A stretch of DNA of 32,000 nucleotides, taken from NCBI GenBank assembly GCA_963528875.1, contig CAURWT010000001.1, positions 150,001 to 182,000 on the forward strand. The letters run 5' to 3'. Every line of letters begins with the position of its first letter. Within the stretch, counting starts at the first letter, position 1. The notes below the pieces were generated by a model. That model had not been told where the DNA came from. It saw only the letters and a list, made by a program, of their open reading frames with translations, and did not search any database. Shown here piece after piece: positions 4,075-32,000 of this stretch. Origin of the DNA: an uncultured Candidatus Saccharimonas sp. GTDB taxonomy: Bacteria; Patescibacteriota; Saccharimonadia; Saccharimonadales; Saccharimonadaceae. The translations under genes and the position numbers were made by a program.

Positions 4075-5238
4075 CTATTCAATAATATTCTTTTTCACTA
4101 AACCATAGTCGTTATCGGTTTTAGTAGTTAAATACTTAAATCTAAAATCACCACCATCAAAAGTATTAGCAATAGCCTTAGAATGATCTTTATTTTTTTC
4201 GTATAGAACTGCAACAACTCTAAAGTCGGTAGAATTAAAATTGTCTAAAGAAATCCTAATATTAAATAATGAATTATCTGTAGAAACCTTTACATGACCG
4301 CTGTCATACACTCTACCACCTCTACCTTCATCTTGAAGAGTATAAGCAATATATAATTCAGCATCACCGTTATACGAATATTCTATATCAGCCTCAAAAT
4401 ATTCACCATGATGAATAATTGGTTTATTACCAACAATTTTAATTGAAGAAGAACTATTATCATTAGTAGAACTATGATTATTGCGAGAATTAAGCGTGTC
4501 TAGATTGGAAGCTATGTATTTCTCAGCAACTTTATCAACATCACCAGATTCACTTATCATACCATCTGCAATAAAAATAGCATTATTACAATATTTTTTA
4601 ACATCCGCCATTGAATGTGTAACCAAGATAACAGTTTTAGTTTTATCTTTCTTAATATTTTCGAAAAAATCATTACATTTACGCTGAAAAGCTTCATCAC
4701 CAACTGCCAAAACTTCATCCAACACTAAAATATCACCTTGAGCTTTAATAGCGATTGAAAAAGCCAAACGAACTTGCATTCCACTAGAGTAATTCTTTAG
4801 TTTTTGATCCATGAATTCTTCAAGCTCAGCAAATTCCACAATTTCATTATACATTGCGGAAATTTCTTCTTTCGAAAAACCAAGAAGTGCACCATTCAAA
4901 TAAATGTTTTCACGGCCAGTAAGTTCTGGATTAAATCCAACACCAAGTTCAATAAATGGGACCAAAGTTCCGTCAACTTTTACCGTACCACTCTCTGGCG
5001 TATAAATTTGCGAAATAATTTTAAGTAATGTAGATTTTCCTGAACCATTTCGACCAACAATACCATAAAAATCACCTTTTTTAACCTTGAATGAAATATC
5101 TTTAAGAACTTTTTGTTCTTTATAACCTTTAATTCCCTTCGTCCAGTTTACAAAAGCCTGTTTAATGCCGCTCGCCTGTTCTGTCGGTAAATGAAAACTT
5201 TTCGAAACATTTTTTACTTCTAAAGCGTATTTTCCCAT
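4075..5238 (-). CDS. Glycopolymer-export ABC transporter ATP-binding protein (Wzt/TagH type) with an extra C-terminal beta-rich domain
   Basis: Walker A is GRNGSGKST, the ABC signature is YSSGMQVRLAFS and Walker B is ILVLDEVLAVGD. About 130 aa follow the NBD, as in Wzt proteins with a C-terminal glycan-binding domain. The start overlaps the permease stop (TAATG). Confidence 0.85.
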   Translation of the reverse strand: MGKYALEVKNVSKSFHLPTEQASGIKQAFVNWTKGIKGYKEQKVLKDISFKVKKGDFYGIVGRNGSGKSTLLKIISQIYTPESGTVKVDGTLVPFIELGVGFNPELTGRENIYLNGALLGFSKEEISAMYNEIVEFAELEEFMDQKLKNYSSGMQVRLAFSIAIKAQGDILVLDEVLAVGDEAFQRKCNDFFENIKKDKTKTVILVTHSMADVKKYCNNAIFIADGMISESGDVDKVAEKYIASNLDTLNSRNNHSSTNDNSSSSIKIVGNKPIIHHGEYFEADIEYSYNGDAELYIAYTLQDEGRGGRVYDSGHVKVSTDNSLFNIRISLDNFNSTDFRVVAVLYEKNKDHSKAIANTFDGGDFRFKYLTTKTDNDYGLVKKNIIE

Positions 5239-6062
5239 TACATAATCTCCGCAAATTTTTTCGAATTTTTATTAAAATACCATAGTCCGAAAGCTACTAA
5301 TAAAGTTGTGATCAAAATCGGAATTAACGCAAACCAGTAATTTTCGAAAATTGTCCAGAAAGTTGGTGTTTCATGAGCGATTAGATTGTGACGAATGTCT
5401 TGAATTGCAAGCGCAATCGGGTTAAGCATCATGATTTTCGCAATCGAAACTCCAAAAATTGAAACTTTTGCAACCATTGAAATTGGATACATAATTGGCA
5501 TTGAATAGACTAAAATCTGCATAAATACTTCCCAGATATGCGAAATATCACGGAATTTAACATAAAGAGTTGATAAAATTAACGCTAAACCAAAAGCTGT
5601 AGCAAAAAGAAGTATAATGTTAAATGGCAAAATTAAAACAGACCATTGGAATTTTACACCAGCAAAAATTGCAAAAGCTAAAACAACCAAAAGATTAATT
5701 GAAAGTGAAATTAAAGCACTCACCATTGAAGAAATAATCACGATATATTTTGGAAAATTAATTTTTCGCATCAAATCACCACGAGCAACAATTGAATTCA
5801 TCCCCAAAGTAACTGCTTCGGTAAAAAATCCCCAAAGAGAGAGACCAAGGAGTAGAGTTATTGCATAGTTTGGAATTGAAGAATCAGTAATTCGCAAGAA
5901 TTTTACAAATATAAAATACATCACCACAAAAATCATAAGTGGCTTAAGAACTGACCATAAAATTCCCAAAGCTGAGCCTTGATACCTTAACTTAAAATCT
6001 GTTTTAACGAGTTCTGCAAGCAGAACCCGATTCCTCTTTTCAAAAAATCCTATTTTAATCAT
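5238..6062 (-). CDS. ABC-2 type transporter permease (Wzm/TagG type)
   Basis: Six-helix hydrophobic protein whose N-terminus (ELVKTDFKLRYQGSALGILWSVLKPL) is typical of ABC-2 permeases. It is translationally coupled to the ATPase. Confidence 0.85.
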   Translation of the reverse strand: MIKIGFFEKRNRVLLAELVKTDFKLRYQGSALGILWSVLKPLMIFVVMYFIFVKFLRITDSSIPNYAITLLLGLSLWGFFTEAVTLGMNSIVARGDLMRKINFPKYIVIISSMVSALISLSINLLVVLAFAIFAGVKFQWSVLILPFNIILLFATAFGLALILSTLYVKFRDISHIWEVFMQILVYSMPIMYPISMVAKVSIFGVSIAKIMMLNPIALAIQDIRHNLIAHETPTFWTIFENYWFALIPILITTLLVAFGLWYFNKNSKKFAEIM

Positions 6063-6072
6063 TATGCTTTTA

Positions 6073-6081
6073 ATTATATCA
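6073..6081 (-). promoter_or_regulatory. Extended -10 box TGATATAAT, 10 nt upstream of the permease ATG (6062-6060)
   Basis: The reverse complement of 6073-6081 is TGATATAAT, and no SD lies in the 10-nt gap. Confidence 0.5.
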
Positions 6082-6158
6082 TATATCGCCTAACACTCCA
6101 ACACTAAACTATTTTTAACACCTAAAAACTAGCTAACTTTCTAGATTATTTTTAATAA

Positions 6159-6186
6159 GTTAAAACAGCATCTCTGCTGTTTTAAC
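6159..6186 (-). terminator. Rho-independent terminator after the LGFP-repeat gene
   Basis: Perfect 12-bp inverted repeat GTTAAAACAGCA/TGCTGTTTTAAC with a 4-nt loop. It starts 2 nt after the stop codon at 6189-6191 and has a U-rich tail on the minus strand. Confidence 0.65.
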
Positions 6187-6188
6187 TG

Positions 6189-7916
6189 CTATTTATCTAT
6201 TTTTAATATATATTTATTACCAACACCCGTAATTAATCCTCTTTCGAAATTCTGAGTCCATTTACCATCATTCCATGCTTCATTCTTTAACGGTAAGCCG
6301 AGTTTATCTTTTTGCGTATCATTTAATGAATTATAGAATTTAAATACATCACCCTGAATCTCCCAATATCCTAAATTATCGTTTCCTATAATATCACCCC
6401 TCTCGTAGTGTTGTATCTTATAACCTTTTTCTTCAATAACATCACTAGTAGGAAATCCTAAAGCACCTTTTTCATTACCAATCTTATTCCAGCGTTCGCG
6501 TATTTTACCATAACTTTCATGATATCCAGATTTTGGACTACCTATAATAAAACCATTCTGATATTTCTGGAACCATCCACCTTGAATAGTTGAAAATTCT
6601 TGTGTTATAGGTAATCCCATCTTACCATGTTCATACCCTAATTGAGCATACTTATCTCTAATTAAACCAATACTTTCCCAATATCCAGTACTATCGCTTC
6701 CAATTATGAAACCATTCTGATATTTTTGTGCACGACCATTATTGATAATGTTAAAATATCCAGATAGTGGTAATCCCATCTTACCATGTTCATACCCTAG
6801 CTCAGAATATCTTTGTCTAATTTTACCATAGTTTTCCCAATATCCAGTACTATCGCTTCCAATTATGAAACCATTTTTAAACCTTTGGAATATTGATTTA
6901 TCGGTCTTGAAAAATTCAGAATCTACATCACCAAGATATCCTTTTTCGCCACCTAGCTCAATATATCTTTCATATATTCCACTATGTATTCTTTTACTTT
7001 CAAGAGTTGAACCAAATAGCTGGTTAAAGAACATAAAGAAATTACGATTTCCATAAGCTCCACAATGTGAAGTTCCCGGATAATTTGCTAGCGCTGAATC
7101 ATTCGGAACATACGGCGTATAAATATATAAACTTAAAGTTGCAATATTTTCAATATTAACACGTTTTGTACCACAAGCTGGATTTGGTGAATATTGAATA
7201 TTATTCCATCCAAGCTTTAGTGAATAACCACCATCTTTATGATGGTCTTTATAATATTTTAGCTGCCAAGCTGCCAAAGTCATTTGTTTATAAAAACCAG
7301 CTTTCGAATCCGCACAAGCAGCAGAAAATCCAGGCCCAGAATCTGGGCAAGCATAGCCCATCGCATATTTATATTGAGTTTTCACTGGCCAATTATCATC
7401 TAGTAAATTGAGAGATTCTTTCTTTAGCAAAACTAACAAAACTTGCGGGTTAATTTCATATTTTTGAGCTGCATCATAAATAATCTGTGCTGCCGAAATT
7501 CCACCTTCGAAAGATCCGCCACCTTTTTCGAAAGAAGTTTCGCCAGTATTTGGATTTTCATGATAATTATTTATGCATACATATGGAGGTTTATGCCAAT
7601 AATTTGAATTTTGTGCAGCAGCAAATTGGGCAGCGGTTCTGCCATCATTTTTTCCAGAAGGGCCAGTACCCCAAGTATCACAACTACCAATTTGTTTGTT
7701 TAAAAAGCTTTGGATTTGCTGCACATTCATTGCATCTTTATTATAAAAAATACTGTCGTCAATAATTCGGCCAGGATTGAAATCAGTTGCTTTAACAGCG
7801 TTAGAAAGATTTCTAAGTACAGCTAAAGCACTAAAAACAATAATCGCCACAACTGGCACACCAATTAAAATTGACTTTTTAAATTTTCTACTTCTCGATT
7901 GTAAAACTTTGAGCAT
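6189..7916 (-). CDS. Secreted or wall-associated protein: signal anchor, putative peptidoglycan/glycan-hydrolase-like domain and five LGFP-type repeats
   Basis: N-terminal TM segment ILIGVPVVAIIVFSALAVL. The central segment (ISAAQIIYDAAQKYEINPQVLLVLLKKESL) resembles muramidase/glucosaminidase families. There are five ~53-aa repeats of the form Y..LG.E.G.LG.P.......G...Q.YQNGFIIGS..GY. Confidence 0.7.
   Translation of the reverse strand: MLKVLQSRSRKFKKSILIGVPVVAIIVFSALAVLRNLSNAVKATDFNPGRIIDDSIFYNKDAMNVQQIQSFLNKQIGSCDTWGTGPSGKNDGRTAAQFAAAQNSNYWHKPPYVCINNYHENPNTGETSFEKGGGSFEGGISAAQIIYDAAQKYEINPQVLLVLLKKESLNLLDDNWPVKTQYKYAMGYACPDSGPGFSAACADSKAGFYKQMTLAAWQLKYYKDHHKDGGYSLKLGWNNIQYSPNPACGTKRVNIENIATLSLYIYTPYVPNDSALANYPGTSHCGAYGNRNFFMFFNQLFGSTLESKRIHSGIYERYIELGGEKGYLGDVDSEFFKTDKSIFQRFKNGFIIGSDSTGYWENYGKIRQRYSELGYEHGKMGLPLSGYFNIINNGRAQKYQNGFIIGSDSTGYWESIGLIRDKYAQLGYEHGKMGLPITQEFSTIQGGWFQKYQNGFIIGSPKSGYHESYGKIRERWNKIGNEKGALGFPTSDVIEEKGYKIQHYERGDIIGNDNLGYWEIQGDVFKFYNSLNDTQKDKLGLPLKNEAWNDGKWTQNFERGLITGVGNKYILKIDK
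6610..6875. repeat. Near-identical 159-bp-period DNA repeats inside the LGFP gene
   Basis: A 30-nt identity (GGTAATCCCATCTTACCATGTTCATACCCT) occurs at 6610-6639 and 6769-6798. A 43-nt identity (TTTCCCAATATCCAGTACTATCGCTTCCAATTATGAAACCATT) occurs at 6674-6716 and 6833-6875. Confidence 0.9.
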
Positions 7917-8490
7917 CCGACCTTCCTTCTTGTTTTTGTTTTGAATTTTTATAAGTTGTTATTGCTGTCCATTTTCCAGTTTTAAATTCACTATCACTAA
8001 TTTTTTTCGAAACTGCCTTACAATATTTATTGTTTGGACTCTCTAAAATTTCGGTTGAAAGTTCAATTTTAGTTCCATCAGAATGCGTTAGAGTATATGA
8101 ACATTTACCATTTCCATCGTCATAAAGGAGCCCTGAAATCTGCCCAGCCACGCGAACTGCGCCATCTTCAACTTGCACAGTTGTATAAGTTGGAAATTTT
8201 GTATATCCCGAGGATTCAACAGTTCCTTCAGCACGATCAGTATTGTTATTTTTAGTTTTCGAATTAATGATTTCTTTCGCAGCTTCTTGCTTTTTAGTTT
8301 CTTCAGGTTTTTTCGAATCTTCTTTTTTCTCTTCAACTTTTGAGGTATTTTCTTCTTTTTTCTCATTATTTTTTTGAGAATTTAAATTTACCCACCAGAA
8401 AATTCCACCAGCACCAGCGACCAGTAAAATTACAAATGTAGCAAAAATAATAGTTTTAGTTTTTTTAGTATTTTGTGTGTTTATTTTCAT
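7888..8490 (-). CDS. Membrane-anchored hypothetical protein with a Lys/Glu-rich linker and a small Cys-containing globular domain
   Basis: N-terminal TM segment IIFATFVILLVAGAGGIFWWV, then KKEENTSKVEEKKEDSKKPEETKKQEAAKE. An AGGAGA SD lies 7 nt upstream of the ATG. The 3' end overlaps the next gene by 29 nt. Confidence 0.6.
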   Translation of the reverse strand: MKINTQNTKKTKTIIFATFVILLVAGAGGIFWWVNLNSQKNNEKKEENTSKVEEKKEDSKKPEETKKQEAAKEIINSKTKNNNTDRAEGTVESSGYTKFPTYTTVQVEDGAVRVAGQISGLLYDDGNGKCSYTLTHSDGTKIELSTEILESPNNKYCKAVSKKISDSEFKTGKWTAITTYKNSKQKQEGRSDAQSFTIEK

Positions 8491-8508
8491 TTTATTTCTC
8501 CTAAACCA

Positions 8509-8517
8509 ATTTTAGCA
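8509..8517 (-). promoter_or_regulatory. Extended -10 box TGCTAAAAT with an 18-nt SD-containing leader, for the 7888..8490 gene
   Basis: The reverse complement of 8509-8517 is TGCTAAAAT, followed by TGGTTTAGGAGAAATAAA and then the ATG. Confidence 0.45.
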
Positions 8518-8566
8518 TAAGCCAAATAAAATTTCAACATTTTGGTTATATTTTTTGGTGATTTTG

Positions 8567-8575
8567 TGCTATAAT
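8567..8575 (+). promoter_or_regulatory. Extended -10 box TGCTATAAT, 9 nt upstream of ATG 8585
   Basis: Direct read of 8567-8575. There is no SD before ATG 8585. Confidence 0.5.
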
Positions 8576-8584
8576 ATAATTACT

Positions 8585-9550
8585 ATGAAGAAACTCATCA
8601 CAATCATGATTCCAGCTTATAATGAAGAAAAAGCTCTACCAAAACTTTTCGAAAGGCTCAACCTTTTAGCAAAAAATACTTCAAAATATGATTTTGAATT
8701 TCTTTTTATTAATGACGGTTCGAAAGATAAAACAATGGAAATTATTAGAAGTGAGAGCCAAAAAGATTCGCGAATTTCCTACATTAATTTAAGCCGAAAT
8801 TTTGGAAAAGAAAATGCAATGCTGGCAGGTTTTGATTATGCAAAAGGAGATGCATTAGTGATTATTGATGCAGATCTACAAGATCCACCAGAGTTAATTC
8901 CTGCAATGATCAACCTTTGGGAAGAAGGTTTTGATGATGTTTATGCTAAACGTGAATCTCGTGATGGTGAAACTTGGCTTAAAAAGCAAACTTCGAAATG
9001 GTTCTACAGCATACTTGATAAAATTTCACAAATTGAAATTCAACGCGACACTGGCGATTTTCGACTTCTCGACCGCCGTGCAGTCGAAGCTCTAAAAACT
9101 CTCCGCGAAATCAACCGTTATACCAAAGGAATGTTCTCTTGGGTTGGTTTTCGAAAGAAAGAAATTACTTATAAACGTGATGCGCGTGTAGCGGGCGAAA
9201 CAAAATGGAATTATGCAAAACTTTTCAATCTAGCAATCGAAGGAATCACTAGCTTCACTGTCGCACCACTTCGCATTGCTACAATTACAGGATTTTTTAT
9301 CTCAATCGCTGCATTTTTATGGATCGCTTTTTTACTAATTCGCCCGCTTTTCGGTGTTCCAACTGGTGACGGTTATACTTCAATTATGTCGGTAATTCTT
9401 TTTCTTGGTGGAATTCAACTCCTCTCAATTGGAATTTTAGGCGAATATATTGGTCGAATTTTCATCGAAAGCAAAAATCGCCCTGTTTATCTAGCGCAAG
9501 AAATCAAGGAATTCAATCATGAAAAATCTACTAAAAAAGCTAAAAAATAG
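8585..9550 (+). CDS. Polyprenyl-phosphate glycosyltransferase (GT2; GtrB/ArnC/DPM1-like)
   Basis: The track ORF starts at a TTG at 8555. I prefer ATG 8585 (MKKLITIMIPAYNEE). Motifs: FINDGSKD, IIDADLQDPPE, GDFRLLDRR, plus two C-terminal TM helices. Confidence 0.85.
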   Translation: MKKLITIMIPAYNEEKALPKLFERLNLLAKNTSKYDFEFLFINDGSKDKTMEIIRSESQKDSRISYINLSRNFGKENAMLAGFDYAKGDALVIIDADLQDPPELIPAMINLWEEGFDDVYAKRESRDGETWLKKQTSKWFYSILDKISQIEIQRDTGDFRLLDRRAVEALKTLREINRYTKGMFSWVGFRKKEITYKRDARVAGETKWNYAKLFNLAIEGITSFTVAPLRIATITGFFISIAAFLWIAFLLIRPLFGVPTGDGYTSIMSVILFLGGIQLLSIGILGEYIGRIFIESKNRPVYLAQEIKEFNHEKSTKKAKK

Positions 9551-9950
9551 CCAAGAATTTTGGTTTGCAGCAATTGGCGGGTTGAATACAATTCTAGATT
9601 TTGTAATTCTTTTTGGGCTAACTTCTCTTGGAATTAGCTCTTTAATTGCGAACATTTTCTCAACTGGGATTACTTTTATAAATAGCTTTGGCTTAAATAA
9701 AAAAATCACTTTTAAATCAGTTTCAAAAAGCAAAAAAGAACTCGTTCGAGAAATGGCGCTTTTTATTATTGTAACACTTTTTGGACTTTGGGTCATTCAA
9801 GGTGTGATAATTTTTCTAACTTTACCATTTTTCGAAAATATTTTAAAAAATCCAAGAATATCGCTTTTAATTTCAAAGCTTATCGCTACCATCTTCAGTT
9901 TAATCTGGAACTTTATACTTTATAAAAAAGTTGTATTCAATAAAAATTAA
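9519..9950 (+). CDS. GtrA-family small membrane protein
   Basis: Four-helix 143-aa protein with the GtrA-like N-terminus FWFAAIGGLNTILDFVILFGL. It overlaps the GtrB-like gene by 32 nt, which is the usual pairing. Confidence 0.75.
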   Translation: MKNLLKKLKNSQEFWFAAIGGLNTILDFVILFGLTSLGISSLIANIFSTGITFINSFGLNKKITFKSVSKSKKELVREMALFIIVTLFGLWVIQGVIIFLTLPFFENILKNPRISLLISKLIATIFSLIWNFILYKKVVFNKN

Positions 9951-10035
9951 ACATATTGTTTACTAAAGAAATTTATAACCGATTTGGAAGCCATTTTTAA
10001 CCTAAAAACAAAATAAAATAAGCCTTTCAAAAGAC

Positions 10036-10491
10036 TTATTTTTTCGAAATAATTAATTGTCGTTCGCGACCTTCACCTTCAGAATGTGTTTCGATATCTG
10101 AATAATCTTGAGCTAATTTATGGACAGTGAAGCGGTCAGTTGGATTTAAGTTTAATCGGTAAGGCTCGCCAGTTTTTCGAACTTGTTCAATCCATTTTTC
10201 AGCTTTTTCAGTAATTTTTTGAGCTCGTTGTTTTTTATAATCTGCAACATCAATATTTACACGGTGAATTTCAGCATTTTTAGCCTCAAGCGCTCGTGAA
10301 ATTAAAAATTGCAATGAACGTAAATTTCCAGAATCACGACCAATAAATAAAGAGTTTAGCTCGCTTGAAGGAACTGAAAGCTGAATAATCTCATCATCAG
10401 CAGTTGAATAGACCACCAAATTAACTCCGAAAAAGCTCAGAATATCTTCCAAAAACTTTTGTGCAAAAACAATTGATTCTTCTCGATTCAT
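10036..10491 (-). CDS. jag: Jag/KhpB-type RNA-binding protein (KH + R3H)
   Basis: I prefer ATG 10491 (MNREES...) because a GGAGG SD lies 4 nt upstream and the yidC stop is at 10493-10495. The C-terminus (RFTVHKLAQDYSDIETHSEGEGRERQLII) is R3H-like, and the gene shows conserved synteny with yidC. Confidence 0.8.
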   Translation of the reverse strand: MNREESIVFAQKFLEDILSFFGVNLVVYSTADDEIIQLSVPSSELNSLFIGRDSGNLRSLQFLISRALEAKNAEIHRVNIDVADYKKQRAQKITEKAEKWIEQVRKTGEPYRLNLNPTDRFTVHKLAQDYSDIETHSEGEGRERQLIISKK

Positions 10492-10492
10492 A

Positions 10493-11455: not shown

Positions 11456-11478
11456 ATCTATTATTATACTACTTTCTA

Positions 11479-11832: not shown

Positions 11833-11842
11833 AACTGTTTAT

Positions 11843-11851
11843 ATTTTAGCA
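11843..11851 (-). promoter_or_regulatory. Extended -10 box TGCTAAAAT, 10 nt upstream of the rnpA ATG
   Basis: The reverse complement of 11843-11851 is TGCTAAAAT, and there is no SD in the gap. Confidence 0.5.
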
Positions 11852-12525: not shown

Positions 12526-12551
12526 TAGAACTCCTTTTATAAAATTTTAAT

Positions 12552-24538: not shown

Positions 24539-24548
24539 AACAATAATT

Positions 24549-24557
24549 TGTTAAAAT
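24549..24557 (+). promoter_or_regulatory. Extended -10 box TGTTAAAAT, 11 nt upstream of ATG 24569
   Basis: Direct read of 24549-24557. Confidence 0.4.
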
Positions 24558-24568
24558 TATAAATAATT

Positions 24569-25126
24569 ATGTTAATTTTAGCTTCAAAATTACTAAACAC
24601 ACCGATTATGGGGCTACAAACCGGCTCACAACTTGCCCTAACCGGCAATGCGATTATTAATCCTGAAAATTTACAAATTTTAGCTTACCAATTAAAAGCT
24701 AATTCTTTTTCGAACGAAGAAATGTTAATCCGAATCGCCGATATTCGTGAGCTTTCAAGAATTGGATTTATTATCGACTCTGGTGAAGATTTTATTCTCC
24801 CAACAGATGTAATTAAAATTAAAGAAATAATCGACCTTGATTTCGACATCTTAAATCTTAAAGTTGAAGATGAAAAAGGTTCAAAAATTGGTAAAATAAT
24901 TGATTACACCTTAAGCTTAGCTGATTTTTCAGTTCAGCAATTAATCGTAAAACGGCCATTTTTAAAATCGTTAAACGATCCAACTTTAACAATTCACCGA
25001 TCTCAAATTGTTGCAATAAATGACGATACTATCACAATTCGCCACGAAAAAGAAGAATCTCCACAAAAACGAGCAGAAAGAAATGATAATTTTGTGCCTA
25101 ATTATATAAATCCCTTCCGAGATTAA
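24569..25126 (+). CDS. Hypothetical protein, possibly a tandem PRC-barrel-like fold
   Basis: Two similar halves (LLNTPIMGLQTGSQLA... and ILNLKVEDEKGSKIGKIIDYTL...QLIV) resemble PRC-barrel patterns. The call is weak and based on the motif alone. Confidence 0.4.
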   Translation: MLILASKLLNTPIMGLQTGSQLALTGNAIINPENLQILAYQLKANSFSNEEMLIRIADIRELSRIGFIIDSGEDFILPTDVIKIKEIIDLDFDILNLKVEDEKGSKIGKIIDYTLSLADFSVQQLIVKRPFLKSLNDPTLTIHRSQIVAINDDTITIRHEKEESPQKRAERNDNFVPNYINPFRD

Positions 25127-25863
25127 AATTGTTCTTTCGAAATCGCCTTTTTAATTTCATCAAAAGAAAAACCCTGTCGAGCCAAATAAGCAATTAACTT
25201 TTGTTCATCTGCATACCTTTTAGCTTTTTTAGCAATTATTTTTTGAATCTCATCCTCATTATTTCGATTTGATTCACTTAAAACCTGTTCAATAATATCT
25301 GAAGAGATACCTTTCGAAAATAATTCAGATTTTAGTTTTTTAATTGAGCTACCTTTTCTCTGATTACGATTTTCAACCCAGAATTTAGCAAACTTTTCAT
25401 CATCAATATATTTTTTTTCAATCAATCGGCTCAAAACTTGTTCAAATGAAATTTTTGAAACTCCTTTTTTTTCATAAAATTCACCAGTTTTATGATTTTT
25501 AAGCTTACGATTCAAAGTTTTTTTCCATAAATAATCACTAATTTCCTTTTTAGAATGTGGCCTCATTAAGCAATAATTTAAAGCTAAAGCATAAAGTTTA
25601 CCAAATTCACTCTGCTGTTCAAGATTTTCGATTTCAGTTTTCGAAAACTTTGTGCCAATTTTAATATTTAACTGCGTCAGCTGAAAAATATCTAGCGAAA
25701 AACGATATTTTCCATTCACAAAAATATTTACCCGATTTTGATTTTTAACTGCTTGTTTTATATCTGTGATTATAAAAAAACCATCCTTAAAAGTAGCTTC
25801 TTGAGAGCTTTTTTTTATCTTTTTATACTCAAAATCACTATGATCAAAAATCTCTAATGCCAT
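25123..25863 (-). CDS. recX: RecA regulator RecX, with an N-terminal extension
   Basis: Repeated three-helix modules (EISDYLWKK, VLSRLIEKKYIDDEKFAKFWVENR, KLKSELFSKGISSDIIEQVL, KLIAYLARQGFSFDEIKKAI), located directly downstream of recA. I prefer ATG 25863 over the TTG at 25878. The gene has a 4-nt tail-to-tail overlap with 24569..25126. Confidence 0.8.
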   Translation of the reverse strand: MALEIFDHSDFEYKKIKKSSQEATFKDGFFIITDIKQAVKNQNRVNIFVNGKYRFSLDIFQLTQLNIKIGTKFSKTEIENLEQQSEFGKLYALALNYCLMRPHSKKEISDYLWKKTLNRKLKNHKTGEFYEKKGVSKISFEQVLSRLIEKKYIDDEKFAKFWVENRNQRKGSSIKKLKSELFSKGISSDIIEQVLSESNRNNEDEIQKIIAKKAKRYADEQKLIAYLARQGFSFDEIKKAISKEQF

Positions 25864-25879
25864 AAAAATTAAAATCAAA

Positions 25880-25902
25880 TTAGCCCAAATTTATCGGGCT
25901 AA
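25880..25902 (-). terminator. recA-recX intergenic hairpin (attenuator/terminator)
   Basis: TTAGCCC/GGGCTAA 7-bp stem with a 9-nt loop, followed by a U-rich run before the recX start. Confidence 0.5.
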
Positions 25903-25907
25903 TTATT

Positions 25908-26969
25908 TTATTCTTCAGTTTTTTCTTCGTTTGGAGTTTCTTCAACAAATTCTTCACCACGAATTTTTGCTCGAACCTTAGCATCAATTTCAGCCATTAC
26001 ATCTGGATTTTCAAGCAAGTATCGCTTAGCATTTTCACGACCTTGACCAATATTCTGGTCGTTATATTTATAGAATGCACCAGATTTTCCTAAAATTTCA
26101 TGTTCAACCGCTAAATCTATAATATCTCCAGTTTTCGAAATTCCCTCATTATACATAATGTCGAATTCAGCAACTCGGAACGGTGCTGCAATCTTGTTTT
26201 TCACAATTTTAACCTTTGTACGGTTTCCAATTACATCATCACCACTTTTAATTTGAGCTGTTCGGCGAATATCAGCACGAACTGAAGCATAGAATTTAAG
26301 CGCGTTACCACCAGTTGTAGTTTCAGGATTTCCAAACATCACACCAATTTTCATTCGAATTTGGTTGATGAAAATCACCGTAGCTTTTGATTTATTAATA
26401 ATTCCAGTAAGTTTTCGAAGCGCTTGCGACATTAAACGAGCTTGAAGCCCCATGTGTGCATCACCCATATCTCCATCAATTTCAGCCTGCGGAACAAGAG
26501 CCGCAACTGAGTCAACTACAATCAAATCAACTGCATTAGAACGCACCAAAGTTTCAGTAATTTCAAGCGCTTGTTCGCCATTATCAGGTTGCGCGACAAG
26601 CAAGTTTTCAGTATCAACACCAAGTTTACGCGCATAAGCTGGATCAAGCGCATGCTCAGCATCAATAAACGCCGCTGTTCCACCTTGTTTTTGGATTTCA
26701 GCAATTGCATGGAGTGTTAAAGTAGTTTTTCCTGAACTTTCTGGTCCATAAATTTCAATAATTCGCCCCTTAGGGTAGCCACCGCCAAGCGCAATATCTA
26801 GACTTAAACATCCTGAAGGCAAAAGTTCAACATCGACTTTATGATTTTCACCAAGTTTCATAATTGAACCATCGCCGAATTGTTTCGAAATTTGTGCAAT
26901 CGCTAAATCTAGCGCTTGTTTTTTACCATCTTCAACTATTCCTGTATCTGTTTTTTTTGCTTTAGCCAT
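25908..26969 (-). CDS. recA: Recombinase RecA
   Basis: [13 protein letters not shown] (Walker A), [12 protein letters not shown] (Walker B), and the L1/L2 regions [19 protein letters not shown] and [26 protein letters not shown]. Confidence 0.98.
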
Positions 26970-26997
26970 AAAATTTTCTCCTTAAAATAATACCTTT

Positions 26998-27026
26998 ATT
27001 TTAACATTTTTTAGCAAAATGTTCAA
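26998..27026 (-). promoter_or_regulatory. recA promoter: TTGAAC, 17-nt spacer, TGtTAAAAT, with an SD-containing leader
   Basis: On the minus strand, TTGAAC is at 27026-27021 and TAAAAT at 27003-26998. AAGGAGA lies 8 nt before the ATG. Confidence 0.6.
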
Positions 27027-27028
27027 GG

Positions 27029-27046
27029 TTATTTTTCGAAAAATAA
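27029..27046. promoter_or_regulatory. Perfect 18-bp palindrome TTATTTTTCGAAAAATAA, abutting the recA -35
   Basis: Direct read; the sequence is self-complementary and centred on TTCGAA. It lies 2 nt upstream of the -35 hexamer. Confidence 0.4.
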
Positions 27047-27075
27047 AAAAGCTCAAAATGAACCTTAAAAAATAA

Positions 27076-27252
27076 TTAGAAAACTGTTGAGCCCTTTTGC
27101 CTCGCAAGCTGCTCACGGGCATTTTGTATTTTAGCTCTTTGATTTACAGATAATTTACGATTAGTAATTGCATTATGGCGTCTATCTAATCCAAAAGTTT
27201 TACAATAAACTATATTACCGACAGCATTTCTGCCAATTGGAATTTTAATCAT
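27076..27252 (-). CDS. Small basic hypothetical protein (58 aa from ATG 27252; 61 aa from GTG 27261)
   Basis: An AGGGGGG SD lies 8 nt upstream of ATG 27252, and a TGATAAAAT box (reverse complement of 27307-27315) lies further upstream. I recognise no family. Confidence 0.4.
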   Translation of the reverse strand: MIKIPIGRNAVGNIVYCKTFGLDRRHNAITNRKLSVNQRAKIQNAREQLARQKGSTVF

Positions 27253-27361
27253 TTTCTTCACCCCCCTAATTTTACTTTACTAATTTTTAAAACCAGCAAT
27301 AAACAAATTTTATCATAATTTTCTAACAAGTTCAAACTGATTAGACCAAAAAAATAAATTG

Positions 27362-27370
27362 TGATATAAT
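27362..27370 (+). promoter_or_regulatory. Extended -10 box TGATATAAT, 8 nt upstream of ATG 27379
   Basis: Direct read of 27362-27370. There is no SD. Confidence 0.5.
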
Positions 27371-27378
27371 AAAAATAT

Positions 27379-27768
27379 ATGAAGAAAAAATCTGGTTTTA
27401 CAGTTATTGAAATTTGTGTTGTAATTATATTTTTAATCGTCGTTGGCGTAATTTTTACAATACAAAGATTCGAACTTCTCGCAGTTCAACGCGATCAAAT
27501 TCGAAAACTTTCGATTAATGAAATTTATTATAATCTGGAAGAAGTTTATTACAAGAAAAACGGCTATTACCCTGAAAAAATCAACGAAGATGTCGTTAAA
27601 GGGATTGAGCCAAATCTCCTAACCGACCCTTCTGGAATTATAATTAATGAAGAAAAAAGTGAATACCACTACGAACCAACCAACTGTGAAAACGGTAAAT
27701 GTAAAAAATTCACACTTCGAGCAAAATTAGAAAAAGAAGGTGATTTTATTAAAAAATCTCGAAATTAA
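27379..27768 (+). CDS. Type IV pilin/pseudopilin-like protein
   Basis: Prepilin-type N-terminus MKKKSG/FTVIEICVVIIFLIVVGVIF (G-F-T-x-I-E followed by a hydrophobic helix). The C-terminal Cys pair is CENGKC. Confidence 0.75.
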   Translation: MKKKSGFTVIEICVVIIFLIVVGVIFTIQRFELLAVQRDQIRKLSINEIYYNLEEVYYKKNGYYPEKINEDVVKGIEPNLLTDPSGIIINEEKSEYHYEPTNCENGKCKKFTLRAKLEKEGDFIKKSRN

Positions 27769-27779
27769 ATATTTTAAAA

Positions 27780-27811
27780 ACGGCTTAAAAGTTTCGAAAG
27801 CCGTTTTTTTA
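27780..27811. terminator. Bidirectional terminator between the pilin-like gene and the bPH gene
   Basis: ACGGCTT/AAGCCGT stem followed by TTTTTTT on the plus strand, with an A-run on the other side. Confidence 0.65.
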
Positions 27812-28561
27812 TTATTTTACGCTCATTTTTACCCCTTCTTCAAAAAGTTTATCAGAAAGCATTTGATTTTCGCGAGCAGCCTCAACAATATCACTTAAAA
27901 ATTCTGCTTTTTTGTCTGGATTCGGCGAAAATGGAAAAGTATAAGTTGATTCATCGCCAATAGTGCTCAATTTAACAGTTCCATAATCAAACAAATGTTG
28001 CAAAATCCCCTCTCGAGAATAAGAAATATCTTCAATCGATTCAAGGTTGATTACTTGTTTTTTTTGGCTCATGATTGTATTCGAAATCCATTGAATTGCA
28101 CGTTCGTTCGTAATCACAAATCGATTCGCTCGATATACAATATAATTAACATAAGTTAATATAATTAAAAGTAGTGTGACTGAACCAAAAATTAAAGAAA
28201 TTTGTGGTTTAAAGTTTGCGGGAATTGGTAGCGGATTTGGCATAAAACAGATGATGATCCACGCGCTAATTAGTAAAACACCAATAAATGCACTAAAAAT
28301 AATATTTAAAAGATAGCCGAGTGAATGACGGCGCATTGAGAGAACCACATATTCATCTTCATCAACAGTGATATCTGGATAAGTTTTTACAGATTGTTCG
28401 TGGCGAGTTTTAATTACGCGTGGATCACCAACGGGAACTTCTACTTGCATGACTGGCTGAACTTGAATTGGAGCCCCCAAGTTGTTTTCGAAAGTTAAAT
28501 TCTGCCCATTTTGTGCGATTTTTTCTTCAAATTTTTGCGCCAAGCTTTGCTTATCATTCAT
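27812..28561 (-). CDS. Membrane protein with a bacterial PH (bPH_2/YdbT-like) domain
   Basis: Two TM helices followed by [53 protein letters not shown]. The start overlaps the ruvB stop by 8 nt. Confidence 0.6.
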
Positions 28562-29567
28562 CTTTAAATTCCTTTCCTAAATGTTCGAATGCTTTTTTGG
28601 TAATAATTCTTCCACGAGGAGTTCGTTGCAAAAAACCAATCTGCATCAGATACGGTTCATAAAAATCTTCGATTGTTGCAGTTTCATCACCTGTTAATGC
28701 TGCCATTGTATTTAAGCCAACTGGCCGCGTTCCGTAATTTTCGATCACCGAATTCAATAGATTTCTATCTGCTGCGTCGAGCCCTAGCTCATCAATTTCA
28801 AGCATTCTTAAAGCATTTTGAGTGGTTTTTGAATCAATAATTCCATCACCATTAACATCAGCATAATCACGAACCCGCTTTAAAATTCGGTTTGCAATTC
28901 GTGGAGTTAACCTTGCTCTCGTTGATAGAATTTTCGAAGCTTCATCTTGAATTTTACTTCCTAAAATTTTACTTGAACGTAAAATAATTTTCGAAATCTC
29001 TTCGGGTGTGTAAAATTCCAATCTATAAATATGACCAAAACGGTCTCGAAGTGGCGCTGCTAAACTTCCTGTTCTGGTAGTTGCCCCAATAACCGTAAAA
29101 TGTGGCAAATCTAACCGAACCGAGCGTGCGGCTGGACCTTTGCCAATCACAATATCAAGTTTGAAATCTTCCATTGCGGAATAAAGAATTTCTTCAACAG
29201 CGCGTGGCATTCGGTGAATCTCATCAATAAAAAGAATATCACCATCTTGTAAATTTGTTACAATCGAAGCCAAATCGCCAGCTTTTTCAATAGCTGGGCC
29301 AGACGTAATTCGAATATTCGCACCCATTTCACGCGCAATCACATTTGCCATTGTAGTTTTTCCTAACCCCGGCGGACCGTAAAGAAGCACATGGTCAATA
29401 TTTTCACCACGCTTTTTTGAAGCTTCAATTGCAAGTTTTAAGTTTTTCTTCATTCGCTCTTGGCCAACATATTCATCAAAATTTGTTGGGCGTAAAGAAA
29501 TTTCCACCTGCTGCTCTTGCGGTTCGTCATCATGTAAGTTTGCATCAATAATTCTCTCAATAGCCAT
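28554..29567 (-). CDS. ruvB: Holliday junction branch migration ATPase RuvB
   Basis: [13 protein letters not shown], Walker [10 protein letters not shown], Walker [10 protein letters not shown] and the sensor [17 protein letters not shown]. Confidence 0.96.
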
Positions 29568-29574
29568 TAACTAT

Positions 29575-29583
29575 ATTATACCA
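29575..29583 (-). promoter_or_regulatory. Extended -10 box TGGTATAAT, 7 nt upstream of the ruvB ATG
   Basis: The reverse complement of 29575-29583 is TGGTATAAT, and there is no SD. Confidence 0.5.
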
Positions 29584-29587
29584 CGAC

Positions 29588-29616
29588 TTGACAAAAATAG
29601 AAAAATTTGTTATAGT
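29588..29616 (+). promoter_or_regulatory. Canonical promoter: TTGACA, 17-nt spacer, TGtTATAGT, for the 143-aa ORF
   Basis: TTGACA is at 29588-29593 and TATAGT at 29611-29616. The leader is about 55 nt, contains a TATTCC/GGAATA hairpin and ends with an AGGAGGG SD. Confidence 0.6.
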
Positions 29617-29672
29617 TCTAACGTGTATTCCTTTATGGAATAAGAAATTTTTATATTTAGGAGGGCTCTAAT

Positions 29673-30104
29673 ATGAGCAACTTAAAAAATTTAGTCAAAA
29701 GCGATATTGCCATTTTCGAAAATGCTGTAAAATTAGCTCACGGCGATGAAGAAACCGCGCGAGAAAACCTTAGCAAAAAAATAATAGGTTTCGCTAAATT
29801 AATTCGAAATAGATTTAACCCCTCTAAGCTAGAAGAAAGCGAACTGGTCAATCTACAAAAAGTTGATACAACTGGAGGGTTTGGAGTTGAGGAAGAAATA
29901 ATTTTCCTGACCAACACAAATAATTGCTTTGGTGTAAATAGCTGTGGAGAAATTTACAGCTTCTCGGTTAAATCTGGGAATAAATATGGTTTTCGTCGAC
30001 TAGATTCAAATGAAATTTTAAATCTTCCAAAAAATGAGCTTGAGTATTTACACCGGCAGTTTTTCCAAGCTGCGAAAGAAGTTTTTAAAAATCGATTATG
30101 CTAG
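29673..30104 (+). CDS. Hypothetical protein (143 aa) inserted on the opposite strand between ruvB and ruvA
   Basis: Strong promoter, SD and terminator. I recognise no family. Confidence 0.6.
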   Translation: MSNLKNLVKSDIAIFENAVKLAHGDEETARENLSKKIIGFAKLIRNRFNPSKLEESELVNLQKVDTTGGFGVEEEIIFLTNTNNCFGVNSCGEIYSFSVKSGNKYGFRRLDSNEILNLPKNELEYLHRQFFQAAKEVFKNRLC

Positions 30105-30126
30105 ATCCATATAGTATAAAATAAAA

Positions 30127-30160
30127 GTCGCACAAAATGTGCGGCTTCTTTCTTTTTTTC
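30127..30160 (+). terminator. Rho-independent terminator after the 143-aa ORF
   Basis: GTCGCAC-AAAAT-GTGCGGC hairpin followed by TTCTTTCTTTTTTT. Confidence 0.65.
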
Positions 30161-30165
30161 AAAAT

Positions 30166-30741
30166 TTAAATTCCAGCTTTCAGTGCCAAAGTAATGCGCT
30201 CCTCTGTTGGTAAATCTCGCGGAATTTGTTCTAATGCTTTTGTTGCATCATTTAAATTAAACCCAAGAGCAATCAGAGCTTCTAAAGCCTCATCAGATGA
30301 AAAATAATGAGGATTTTCAGTATTTTGTGATTTCGAAATCGCCATTCCAACTTTATCTTTTAAATCTAAAATTACACGCTCAGCTGATTTCTTACCAACT
30401 CCAGATGCTTTTTGGATAAATTTTGCATCTTCGCAAGCAATTGAATTTCGAACATCTTCAGTTTCACCTAAACTCATAATTGCAACTCCAGCCCTTGGGC
30501 CAATTCCTTGAACAGTAATTAAAAGTTCAAAAAGCTTTTTAGATGCCAAACTCGAAAAACCAAAAAGTTCTTGACTTCTATCGGTAATATTATGATATGT
30601 GTAAAATTTAATATCATCGCCCAGAACTGCTCGTTCAAACTCATTTGCGGGAACGATAACTTCATATCCAACACCAGCAACATCCACAATCACGCTACCA
30701 GCAAATTTTTCAACAATTTTTCCAGAAATATGTGCAATCAT
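30166..30741 (-). CDS. ruvA: Holliday junction DNA helicase subunit RuvA
   Basis: MIAHISGKI....VIVDVAGVGYEV, the HhH region LLITVQGIGPRAGVAIMS...LQKASGVGKKSAERVILDLK and C-terminal domain III. Confidence 0.92.
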   Translation of the reverse strand: MIAHISGKIVEKFAGSVIVDVAGVGYEVIVPANEFERAVLGDDIKFYTYHNITDRSQELFGFSSLASKKLFELLITVQGIGPRAGVAIMSLGETEDVRNSIACEDAKFIQKASGVGKKSAERVILDLKDKVGMAISKSQNTENPHYFSSDEALEALIALGFNLNDATKALEQIPRDLPTEERITLALKAGI

Positions 30742-30747
30742 TAAATT

Positions 30748-30756
30748 ATTTTACCA
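30748..30756 (-). promoter_or_regulatory. Extended -10 box TGGTAAAAT, 6 nt upstream of the ruvA ATG
   Basis: The reverse complement of 30748-30756 is TGGTAAAAT, and there is no SD. Confidence 0.5.
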
Positions 30757-30771
30757 TAAACTCTTTAAGTT

Positions 30772-31257
30772 TTAAATACGCGTCATATAAAAATGCGTAA
30801 TTGCAGCAGCGAGTGCATCGGCTGCATCATCTGGCTTCGGAATTTCAGCCAAATTTAAATTCGAACGCACCATTTCCTGCATTTGCTTTTTATTCGCTCC
30901 ACCATAACCTGTTAAAGTTTGTTTAATCTGATTTGGAGTATATTCTGAAATTGGAATTTTTGATTGTTGAGCTACTAACATAGCCACACCACGAGCCTGA
31001 GCTACCGAAATTGCCGTTGTTACGTTTTTCGAAAAAAATAGTTTTTCAATTGAAACTTCATCTGGATTAGTTTCTGCAATAATCTCTTTCAAGCCATTAT
31101 AAATTTCTTCAAGCCGAATTTCAATTGGTGTATGAGCCGGAGTTGAAATAACACCACCAGTTACCATTTTTAAGGGCTTACCAATCTGGCAATCTACAAC
31201 GCCGAAACCCAAAATTCCAGTTCCGGGGTCAATTCCTAGAATTCGCCGCTTTTTCAT
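30772..31257 (-). CDS. ruvC: Crossover junction endodeoxyribonuclease RuvC
   Basis: ILGIDPGTGILGFGVV, SIEKLFF and DDAADALAAAITH contain the catalytic acidic residues. Confidence 0.92.
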   Translation of the reverse strand: MKKRRILGIDPGTGILGFGVVDCQIGKPLKMVTGGVISTPAHTPIEIRLEEIYNGLKEIIAETNPDEVSIEKLFFSKNVTTAISVAQARGVAMLVAQQSKIPISEYTPNQIKQTLTGYGGANKKQMQEMVRSNLNLAEIPKPDDAADALAAAITHFYMTRI

Positions 31258-32000
31258 TTTTTACCTTTTGAAAATTTCGCAAAAATATCTTTTCGAAATT
31301 CGAAAAATAAAATCGCTAAAAATACTAGAATCACAACAGCGATAATCCACCAACCCGTGAATTCGGCCTGTTTAGAATTTTCTTCCTCTTTTTTTACACC
31401 ATCACTAGCACCACTGTTTTTTACAACTTTTCTGCAACGATTCGTCTCTTCATTTCGCTCATATCCATCTTTACAAGGCGCTAGTTCTTTTTTAACTTCA
31501 TTACTGTTTTTTCTACAACGATTTGTTTCAGGATTTCGTGTATATCCTGGAGCGCATAAAACATCTTTTTTCGAAACTATTACACTTGAAATTTTTCGAC
31601 ACCTATTAGTTTCTGAATTGCGCTCATAACCTTCACGACATTCCAATGTAGCTTTTTCTACTAAAATTTTATTACATCGATTTGTTTCAAGATTTAAGAA
31701 ATAACCATTTTCACATTTTTTTTCTTGATTTTCTTCTTTAATCTTATTACAGCGATCAGTTTCTTCGTTTAAAAAATATCCTGCTTGGCAAGTTTTTTTA
31801 TTTTTTTCACAATGATTTTCAGAGTTTAAAAAGAATCCATCTTCACAAACTTGAAGAATATTTTCACTATTTTTTGTTATTTTAAAGCTTTGTTTCCATT
31901 CTTCTCCATCAAAAATCCAGCTTAAATTCTTCTTTGAGCCCTTCAATTCAATACTTTGAATTTCTTGTTTTTTTGAATTTAAAAGAATAATTTTATTATT
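31254..32000 (-). CDS. C-terminally membrane-anchored protein with six tandem Cys-pair repeats (5'-partial; the frame stays open to the window edge)
   Basis: The track starts it at a TTG (31946), but the frame upstream (NNKIILLNSKKQEIQSIEL...) has no stop up to position 32000. The repeat is C-x2-G-[YF]-x2-N-x-E-[TN]-x-[RH]-C-x-K, six times. The TM helix WWIIAVVILVFLAILFF is near the C-terminus. The gene overlaps the ruvC start by 4 nt. Confidence 0.6.
   Translation of the reverse strand, partial: NNKIILLNSKKQEIQSIELKGSKKNLSWIFDGEEWKQSFKITKNSENILQVCEDGFFLNSENHCEKNKKTCQAGYFLNEETDRCNKIKEENQEKKCENGYFLNLETNRCNKILVEKATLECREGYERNSETNRCRKISSVIVSKKDVLCAPGYTRNPETNRCRKNSNEVKKELAPCKDGYERNEETNRCRKVVKNSGASDGVKKEEENSKQAEFTGWWIIAVVILVFLAILFFEFRKDIFAKFSKGKK

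Follow-up and report, generated by a model that had tools for sequence, protein, structure and literature searches.

A lineage-specific excess of the palindrome TTCGAA in native DNA of Saccharibacteria

We analysed a 32,000-nucleotide stretch of an uncultured Candidatus Saccharimonas sp. (assembly GCA_963528875.1, contig CAURWT010000001.1, positions 150,001 to 182,000; hereafter the window), in which the palindromic hexamer TTCGAA occurs 90 times by direct count, including 44 copies of TTTCGAAA and 7 of TTTTCGAAAA. The excess of this word over codon and composition expectation is confirmed. It affects all three reading frames, and it is missing from an island that appears to have been imported from Streptococcus. 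With a probability of roughly 0.4, (T)TTCGAA(A) may be a lineage-specific, highly iterated palindrome of native DNA, comparable to HIP1, the highly iterated palindrome 1 of cyanobacteria, or to DNA uptake sequences (DUS), which would serve as a self-DNA tag through a fixation advantage in transformation or recombination and would possibly be read in methylated form.

Abundance and codon context of TTCGAA

The 90 sites are distributed as 7 at positions 1-4074, 25 at 4075-12570, none at 12571-16136 and 58 at 16137-32000, exactly as a first-pass annotation of the same DNA had them. The GC content of the window is 34.5%. TTCGAA ranks first among the 6-bp palindromes of the window and sixth among all hexamers, the other top-ranked hexamers being composed exclusively of A and T letters. 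Its density in the backbone is 3.2 per kb, or about one per 300 bp. The left part of the native backbone (1..12613, no strand), the right edge of which was set by homology to island-free strains, contains 32 sites, at positions 603, 944, 991, 2291, 2350, 2462, 2898, 4660, 4871, 5201, 5260, 5343, 6243, 7303, 7506, 7527, 8006, 8258, 8312, 8648, 8719, 8992, 9150, 9831, 10043, 10176, 10525, 11085, 11247, 11684, 11989 and 12115. The 58 sites of the right part (16135..32000, no strand) lie at 17014, 17092, 17233, 18186, 18579, 18603, 18861, 19556, 19925, 20025, 20238, 20550, 20692, 21268, 21331, 21958, 22225, 22412, 22670, 22765, 23027, 23129, 23284, 23306, 23415, 23452, 23565, 23876, 23941, 24118, 24294, 24709, 25136, 25313, 25640, 26134, 26354, 26414, 26884, 27035, 27469, 27500, 27793, 28080, 28487, 28584, 28933, 28990, 29309, 29715, 29803, 30332, 30447, 30860, 31028, 31292, 31299 and 31570.

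The palindrome extends symmetrically from 6 to 8 bp, (T)TTCGAA(A). Position -1 is T in 59 of the 90 sites and position +1 is A in 63, the two preferences being for the most part mutually independent, and C or G occurs at each flank in merely 5-6 of the 90. Some copies extend further: AATTTTCGAAAATT, at 5339..5352 in coding sequence, is a perfect 14-bp palindrome; TTATTTTTCGAAAAATAA, at 27029..27046, is a perfect 18-bp palindrome in the divergent intergenic region between recA and a gene for a pilin-like protein, and one of three intergenic sites; TTCGAAATTCGAA, at 31292..31304, contains two TTCGAA spaced 7 bp (none of the three is assigned to a strand). The coordinates that the first-pass annotation gave for these three were correct, and a fourth extended copy, CATTTTCGAAAATG, which it had placed at 29712-29725, is really located one base to the left, at 29711-29724. 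TTATTTTTCGAAAAATAA could be an operator, or merely an extended copy of the motif.

Markov models of increasing order predict 9.6 (order 0), 19 (order 1), 35 (order 2) and 49 (order 3) sites in the backbone, compared with the 90 observed. The maximal-order (order-4) expectation is as high as 77, because the sub-words TTCGA and TCGAA carry the same excess. Codon-aware null models were run on the 29 backbone open reading frames (ORFs; 26.3 kb, 87 sites). The shuffling of synonymous codons gave 28.5±4.6 sites, and the permutation of codon order gave 20.3±4.3. The Katz-Burge dicodon shuffle, which preserves the protein, the codon usage and every dinucleotide, gave 45.5±4.6 sites, with a maximum of 60 in 1000 shuffles (z=9.0); over the three models, z ranged from 9 to 15. 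The first-pass annotation had argued that the excess would reduce to codon-pair usage if a shuffle of this kind reproduced the count. As the shuffled counts stayed far under 87, the excess is no by-product of codon-pair or dinucleotide usage. The 8-mer was found 41 times in the backbone coding sequences, with 12.1±2.9 expected. The enrichment of TTCGAA in the window species is 4.5-9-fold, and 87 of the 204 permissible positions, at which synonymous choice could make the word, carry it (about 43%). The ratio of TTCGAA to AACGTT, a word of the same composition, is 90:4 in the window backbone, as compared with 70:72 across 374 kb from other Saccharibacteria and 242:126 across 981 kb from other bacteria; a eukaryote paper reports a merely 2-fold ratio in fly and worm, which is far under 90:4.

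The word is read in frames 0, 1 and 2 at 24, 22 and 41 sites, respectively, the remaining three being intergenic, and each frame has 2.3-4 times as many sites as codon usage predicts; the enrichment in frame 1 (2.7-fold) equals that in frame 0. Phe-Glu is written TTC-GAA in 24 of 46 cases, with 23% expected. Arginine is encoded by CGA in 22 of 33 cases (67%) in the TT_A context, but in 29% elsewhere. Serine is encoded by TCG in 41 of 77 cases (53%) in the T_AA context, as compared with 3 of 41 after a base other than T and 56 of 486 elsewhere (7-12%). CGA and TCG are unusually common codons in this DNA, and the encoded peptides vary from frame to frame, as in ftsH, where the three readings noted earlier are all correct: A-F-E-K (frame 0, 20238), D-L-R-N (frame 1, 19925) and L-F-S-K (frame 2, 20692). 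The enrichment in all frames and the context dependence of the codons thus support the proposal of the first-pass annotation that a force acting on DNA, and not on a dipeptide, steers serine toward TCG and arginine toward CGA in a TT..AA context. None of the words that differ from TTCGAA at one position is enriched (observed/expected 0.6-1.4), and TTTGAA and TTCAAA are slightly depleted (0.68-0.74 of expectation). With no one-off variant in excess, a motif limited to one-step neighbours or half-sites is rejected. Clearly, the force targets the entire hexamer at the DNA level, in all three frames.

Imported DNA, relatives and the evolution of sites

The island without TTCGAA (12614..16134, minus strand) is delimited by homology to island-free strains, which stops at 12613 and restarts at 16135. 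Its three genes, assigned by Pfam and all on the minus strand, encode a copper P-type ATPase (CopA, 12656-14899), a cupredoxin protein (14889-15260) and a CopY-type repressor (15279-15674). The GC content of this 3.5-kb segment is 0.45, and its CpG odds ratio is 0.66, as compared with 1.17 in the backbone. In a protein search, the island CopA was 98-99% identical to CopA of Streptococcus vestibularis and S. salivarius, and the source was identified as the S. salivarius group. Strains L001, L002 and L097 lack the island, whereas L003 contains it. At the density of the backbone it should hold 11 TTCGAA, whereas none was found (P=1.5e-5). The contrast between backbone and island that had been described earlier is thus borne out by the foreign CopA and by the lack of the island in some strains. 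Judged from its sequence, the island is a very recent inter-phylum import from Streptococcus into Saccharibacteria, which plausibly entered by transformation. No mobility gene was found in the island, and no near match to it among the plasmids searched. That this GC-rich segment is an rRNA or tRNA locus was ruled out, as neither Rfam nor a tRNA scan gave any match in the window. The insertion lies between lepA and a DUF4352 gene, and a C11 tract is located at 12571-12581, just outside the left junction.

The organism is an oral member of the Saccharibacteria close to 'Candidatus Nanogingivalis gingivitcus', a TM7 bacterium of the human mouth, with which the window shares 85% identity in MurJ. 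The RecA relatives of the window among GTDB representative genomes are Saccharibacteria with at most 83% identity. For comparison, 86 loci were retrieved via RecA, and the family was sampled via MurJ and UvrA homologues (UvrA, intended to reach a distant locus of the window species, gave loci L092-L096 of other family members instead). Six contigs of the same species (96-99.9% nucleotide identity) from independent metagenome assemblies show the pattern, which is therefore no assembly artefact. With flanks of 10 kb on the left and 6 kb on the right added to the window, about 48 kb of the species was covered; the 10 kb on the left contains 23 sites, with 5.1 and 8.9 expected from the synonymous and dicodon shuffles (z=8.9 and 6.1). 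No enrichment is seen at the RecA loci of the other Saccharibacteria (about 20) or of the remaining bacteria (about 55), in which TTCGAA is at 0.48 and 0.79 of the order-1 expectation, respectively.

Within the family, the word is abundant in some lineages and rare in others. In the window species it occurs at 3.2-4.0 sites per kb (3.1 per kb in the left extension). Locus L089 contains 4.2 sites per kb, and 5.1 per kb across its native 13.6 kb; in the shuffle tests, L089 had 63 sites, with 20.2 and 42.8 expected from the synonymous and dicodon shuffles (z=11.4 and 4.9). L095, which represents a different genomic region, contains 2.2 per kb (20 sites, with 7.7 and 12.1 expected; z=5.1 and 3.2). 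L090 and L096, with 1.7 and 1.1 sites per kb, are mosaic genomes in which the sites are patchy. The other lineages appear to avoid the word (0.02-0.14 per kb): N. gingivitcus has one site in 43 kb, L091 three in 21.6 kb and L092 two in 22.8 kb. Summed over the genes of these three, 4 sites were found, with 18.0 expected from the synonymous (P=8e-5) and 11.3 from the dicodon shuffle (P=0.012), and TTCGAA in the sister species is at 0.21 of expectation, although this avoidance rests on small counts. CGA makes up 39-40% of arginine codons in the lineages rich in the motif, 24% in L091 and 5% in N. gingivitcus. By comparison of these sequences, a split between hoarding and avoiding the word is seen within one family, in which a subset of close relatives hoards it.

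The 43 kb of N. gingivitcus (L087, L088) contains only 11 TCGA sites, which is 0.14 of expectation given CpG, at a CpG odds ratio of 0.6, and TAGCTA is about 2-fold over-represented there (31 per 21.6 kb). This suggests that N. gingivitcus is under TaqI-type restriction pressure, perhaps favouring another palindrome.

In nucleotide identity, two hoarders, L089 and L090, come nearest to the window of the four lineages compared. Between L090 (10001-13454) and the window, identity is 91-92% in lepA, 84% in tilS and 73% in murJ, and the murJ gene of L090 is without TTCGAA. In L096 (1-22811), 12 sites are located in 15.5-17.6 kb and nearly none in the first 10 kb. This mosaicism of L090 and L096 indicates recombination across species, between motif-rich and motif-poor lineages. 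L089, which is otherwise saturated, contains a 3.4-kb stretch free of TTCGAA (13545-16931) that coincides with an ORF of 1130 amino acids (aa) without Pfam annotation at the contig end; it probably encodes a recently acquired or fast-evolving surface protein.

At the level of single sites, 68 of the 90 positions are invariant among strains, and about 15 of the 22 variable ones alternate between TTCGAA and TTCAAA or TTTGAA. Polymorphism at synonymous TTYGAA/TTCRAA positions is 15%, as compared with 10.5% at other CpG-capable positions (P=0.19, symmetric ascertainment); the values of 25% and 12% obtained initially were biased by the choice of sites, and a hypermutable CpG, as expected of a deamination hot spot of 5-methylcytosine, is therefore rejected as unsupported. 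CpG is the fixed state at 62% of TTYGAA/TTCRAA synonymous positions, but at 19% elsewhere. Thus, the sites are neither hypermutable nor individually constrained, their equilibrium is strongly shifted, and the turnover of single sites is close to the neutral synonymous rate. In the comparison of the window with L089, at about 78% nucleotide identity, 20 of 37 sites (54%) are positionally shared; the share is 22% for hexamers as a whole and 0-14% for TTCAAA and TTTGAA.

In the lineages that avoid the word, the orthologous hexamers are TTTGAA, TAAGAA, TAAAAA, TTCTAA and similar ones, and TTCGAA therefore arose with the help of transversions (AGA to CGA), of changes in two steps and of replaced amino acids. 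Amino-acid identity to motif-poor relatives is 57-58% under the motif and 73% elsewhere (P<0.001), with K-to-R and L-to-F as prominent replacements, so that TTCGAA sits preferentially at poorly conserved amino acids. Taken together, these results demonstrate that the force bends protein sequence where this is tolerated and has so far left imported DNA untouched.

The distribution of sites along native DNA is also not random. The gaps between sites in the window have a coefficient of variation (CV) of 0.79, while a null model of permissible sites gives 1.04±0.12 (P=0.002), and the largest gap is 1060 bp, with 1646 bp expected (P=0.03). The CV is 0.51 in L095 (0.99 expected, P=0.0004) and 0.79 in the L089 core (0.94 expected, P=0.05), and in a fourth, small data set it is under the null but with P=0.27. 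All four data sets were restricted to native, non-mosaic DNA, and the CV is under the null in 4 of 4. Under alternative null models, the evenness gave P=0.02 (uniform) and P=0.05 (dicodon). It is seen at a scale of 100-1000 bp and is not a kb-scale periodicity as for HIP1. Density is kept at 3-5 sites per kb, with a spacing that is more even than random. Within the window, the glycosyltransferase genes at 728-4002 have only 6 of 27 permissible sites filled, as compared with 81 of 177 elsewhere (P=0.02), and the GC content of the two glycosyltransferase genes in window 1-4074 is lower (0.286). These features are consistent with the polysaccharide cluster being an older, partly ameliorated acquisition.

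Genes around the sites

The genes of the window encode envelope glycosyltransferases, an ABC transporter, YidC, the RNase P protein, a split LepA, MurJ, FtsH, TilS, a PilB-like ATPase, RecX, RecA, a pilin-like protein and RuvB, RuvA and RuvC. As dnaA and dnaN lie about 3-6 kb past the right end and the GC skew is negative throughout, the window is origin-proximal. The recombination genes of the backbone, which served as anchors for finding strains and relatives, are recA (25908..26969, minus strand), recX (25123-25878), ruvB (28554-29567), ruvA (30166-30741) and ruvC (30772-31257). The gene at 23264..24538 (plus strand) encodes an ATPase of the type IV pilus/type II secretion system E (T2SS-E) family, as assigned by a Pfam T2SSE match on the identical protein in strain loci. 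ATPases of this kind work with Com proteins in competent bacteria, and the gene is given here as context only. The gene at 27379..27768 (plus strand), also given as context, encodes a small pilin-like protein whose N-terminal sequence is KSGFTVIE and which has two conserved cysteines and no Pfam match. It was considered as a specificity determinant, but it is not an obvious one, as it is similarly conserved (55-65% identity) in motif-rich and motif-poor relatives.

The lepA gene (16137-17914) is split at 17363 into ORFs of 183 and 408 aa with overlapping stop and start codons (TAATG), and the split is kept in all family members examined. A 208-aa ORF with a T5orf172 domain lies between the lepA halves in L089 (11660-14063), and two small ORFs lie there in L091 (12086-14700). 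This suggests that lepA was split by a homing-endonuclease-like insertion, which was later lost in the window species. At 31254-31946 (minus strand), a 230-aa protein with repeated cysteine modules (C..GY..N.ETNRC.K) and a C-terminal membrane anchor is encoded, for which the Pfam matches are sub-threshold only (DUF7630, TNFR-like). A 101-aa antisense ORF at 9491-9796 (minus strand) overlaps the end of a glycosyltransferase gene (8555-9550) and most of a GtrA-like gene (9519-9950), and is almost certainly spurious.

A possible self-DNA tag and its alternatives

To read a 6-8 bp palindrome would require a protein that recognises this sequence, probably as a dimer and with a specificity of the restriction-modification type; a reader of this type is supported by the presence of both hoarding and avoidance in one family. 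In hoarding lineages, its activity would give alleles with the complete word a small fixation advantage, most likely through natural transformation and homologous recombination. DNA bearing the word, possibly only if methylated by a cognate orphan methyltransferase, would be favoured in uptake, protection or recombination. Molecular drive or weak selection would then spread the word, which would act as a self-DNA tag, while sister lineages with an enzyme cutting TCGA or TTCGAA would counter-select the word.

The closest parallels are HIP1 and the uptake sequences. HIP1 (GCGATCGC) is likewise a short palindrome that is hyper-abundant in native DNA (PMC5861425, PMC4390886). HIP1 also occurs in all three frames and in non-coding DNA without a peptide or RNA role, is lineage-specific and replaced or lacking in some relatives, and is non-randomly spaced, with selection seemingly acting on the distribution and not on single sites (PMC5861425). 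It is linked to orphan methyltransferases (PMC4390886), and it raises natural transformation in a methylation-dependent manner (bioRxiv 10.1101/2024.09.10.611283). However, HIP1 is a GC-rich octamer with a GATC core found in cyanobacteria, whereas the word studied here is an AT-flanked hexamer or octamer with a CG core in Patescibacteria. The excess of HIP1 is 15-300-fold (PMC5861425), as compared with 4.5-9-fold for TTCGAA. HIP1 sites are conserved beyond codons, which is not demonstrable for TTCGAA here; one-off variants of TTCGAA are not enriched, and sister species actively avoid it. As a different word in a Saccharibacteria host, TTCGAA is not HIP1 itself and can be an analogue at most.

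DUS of Neisseriaceae and the uptake signal sequences (USS) of Pasteurellaceae are asymmetric 9-12-mers recognised in one orientation, and the receptor in Neisseria is the ComP pilin. Uptake sequences are spaced more evenly than random, and related taxa reportedly differ in their uptake-sequence 'dialect'. As with TTCGAA (3.2 per kb in the backbone and none in the island), they occur once or more per kb in core genes and are lacking in newly acquired ones. They also lie at poorly conserved residues and are accommodated by codon choice (PMC2817400), and their host groups are naturally competent, as are Saccharibacteria, for which natural competence via ComEC was shown experimentally (PMC10633639). 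In contrast to DUS and USS, TTCGAA is a 6-8 bp perfect palindrome, is three to four times denser, and did not keep out a Streptococcus segment that lacks it.

In Campylobacter jejuni, methylated RAATTY, a frequent AT-rich palindromic hexamer, is said to mark self DNA for transformation through the orphan methyltransferase CtsM. In contrast to TTCGAA, it is degenerate and owes its frequency largely to base composition, and we know of no report of RAATTY being raised above a codon-aware expectation. TTCGAA is also identical to the target of the type II enzymes BstBI/AsuII (TT^CGAA), and its core TCGA is that of TaqI (T^CGA). The avoidance typical of such targets appears in the sister species (0.21 of expectation for TTCGAA, and 0.14 for TCGA in N. 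gingivitcus), but the window species is enriched in the word 4.5-fold instead of being depleted, and its 48 kb is without a restriction or modification gene.

Several observations weigh against a self-DNA tag. Pfam searches of all unannotated window ORFs, together with precomputed Pfam assignments in the 10 kb on the left and 6 kb on the right, revealed no methyltransferase, endonuclease, Vsr/MutH-like or com gene in these 48 kb, and the reader protein is therefore hypothetical. A 6-8 bp palindrome discriminates weakly in comparison with the known asymmetric 9-12-mer uptake sequences. The integration of the motif-free Streptococcus segment means that TTCGAA cannot be an absolute requirement for entry. 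Purifying selection on individual sites is unsupported, as codon conservation in and out of the motif does not differ significantly between the window and L089, and polymorphism among strains is not reduced. The evidence for even spacing depends on the data set and null model (P from 0.0004 to 0.27 across data sets). Lastly, the 48 kb covered is origin-proximal, and the genome-wide extent of the excess rests on one related species, L095.

A more specific version, which we regard as doubtful, is that TTCGAA, with its core TCGA, flipped its role within one oral Saccharibacteria family, from a purged restriction target in N. gingivitcus and two further lineages to a hoarded, methylation-read self-DNA tag in the window species, L089 and L095, where it would bias transformation or recombination to conspecific DNA.

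Pure mutational bias is disfavoured, but a neutral origin deserves weighing, in which an orphan TTCGAA/TCGA cytosine methyltransferase and Vsr-type very-short-patch repair would convert TT(T/G)GAA from T:G to C:G, leaving the word as a function-free by-product. In E. coli, very-short-patch repair makes Dcm sites (CCWGG) over-represented and the deamination product under-represented through biased repair of T:G, and a similar repair-driven idea was reportedly put forward for HIP1 by Elhai. This origin would fit the palindromic, restriction-modification-type specificity, the CG to TG or CA transitions at about 15 of the 22 variable sites, the fixation of CpG at 62% of TTYGAA/TTCRAA synonymous positions, the mild depletion of TTTGAA and TTCAAA and the lack of constraint at single sites; moreover, alternate HIPs of cyanobacteria track cognate methyltransferases (PMC4390886). 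Repair of this kind boosts transitions only, however, and TTCGAA is equally enriched in the frame that has no synonymous-transition route: CGA in frame 1 cannot be reached from TGA (stop) or CAA (Gln), and yet that frame is 2.7-fold enriched. Frame-1 sites need AGA-to-CGA transversions and also an altered preceding codon, for which a repair bias limited to transitions is insufficient, and the orthologues do differ by transversions and two-step changes. In addition, independent repair at each site predicts random occupancy and not even spacing, the depletion of the deamination product is weak, and neither a methyltransferase nor a vsr gene is encoded in the 48 kb. Neutral repair is thus unlikely as the explanation, and Vsr-like repair is at best a contributor.

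The word might instead be the strand-discrimination or nicking signal of a system like methyl-directed mismatch repair (compare Dam-GATC/MutH of E. coli), with selection raising a naturally rare hexamer to a density of one per 250-300 bp, at which no mismatch would be far from a site. The density of one per 270-316 bp is near the spacing of GATC in E. coli (about one per 240 bp), and the even spacing with a short largest gap, the absence of the word from foreign DNA and the lack of constraint on single sites, as expected if selection acts on density, would agree with such a role. We nevertheless consider it quite unlikely, as neither a MutH-like nor a methyltransferase gene is present in the 48 kb and as the avoidance of the word by sister species of the same lifestyle is left unexplained.

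It is very unlikely that (T)TTCGAA(A) is bound by the dimer of an abundant protein that is associated with the nucleoid or organises the chromosome. A palindrome in an extended T-tract/A-tract context and with even spacing would suit one, and a role in chromosome architecture has been suggested for HIP1 (PMC5861425). However, such proteins usually have degenerate sites, and here no one-off variant is enriched; the switch between hoarding and avoidance is more typical of restriction-modification-type recognition, and no candidate protein was found. Finally, a by-product of codon usage, codon-pair bias, dinucleotides or an RNA or peptide motif has practically no chance: CGA and TCG are common and the maximal-order model predicts 77 of the 90 sites, but that value merely reflects the shared excess of TTCGA and TCGAA, the dicodon shuffle falls short of the count here and in three more data sets, all frames are enriched with differing peptides, and the use of CGA and TCG depends on context and tracks motif status across species.

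Full-text literature searches found no paper naming both TTCGAA and Saccharibacteria, nor any description of TTCGAA as hyper-abundant in a prokaryote, which agrees with the statement of the first-pass annotation that it knew of no description of the motif. Iterated palindromes and uptake-type words are known as such; the word and the phylum are new, and the contrast between hoarding and avoidance among sisters is unusual. To our knowledge, nothing is known of how the reduced Saccharibacteria epibionts tell self from foreign DNA. Their transformability was shown only recently, and a palindrome that is hoarded in some lineages and purged in others offers a concrete, testable handle on self-DNA recognition. 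In the DNA studied here, TTCGAA is also a sensitive marker of native versus imported DNA, which flags, for instance, the Streptococcus copper-resistance island, and it may matter for the design of donor DNA in the genetics of bacteria of the candidate phyla radiation. TTCGAA also offers an independent second system for the 30-year-old question of the function of HIP1-like palindromes. If it did flip from a restriction target to a self-DNA tag, it would be the first signal for uptake or recombination in Patescibacteria and the first palindromic one, as well as a comparative system that could explain the origin of HIP1-like palindromes. The split between hoarding and avoidance would then hinder gene flow reciprocally between species living in the same habitat.

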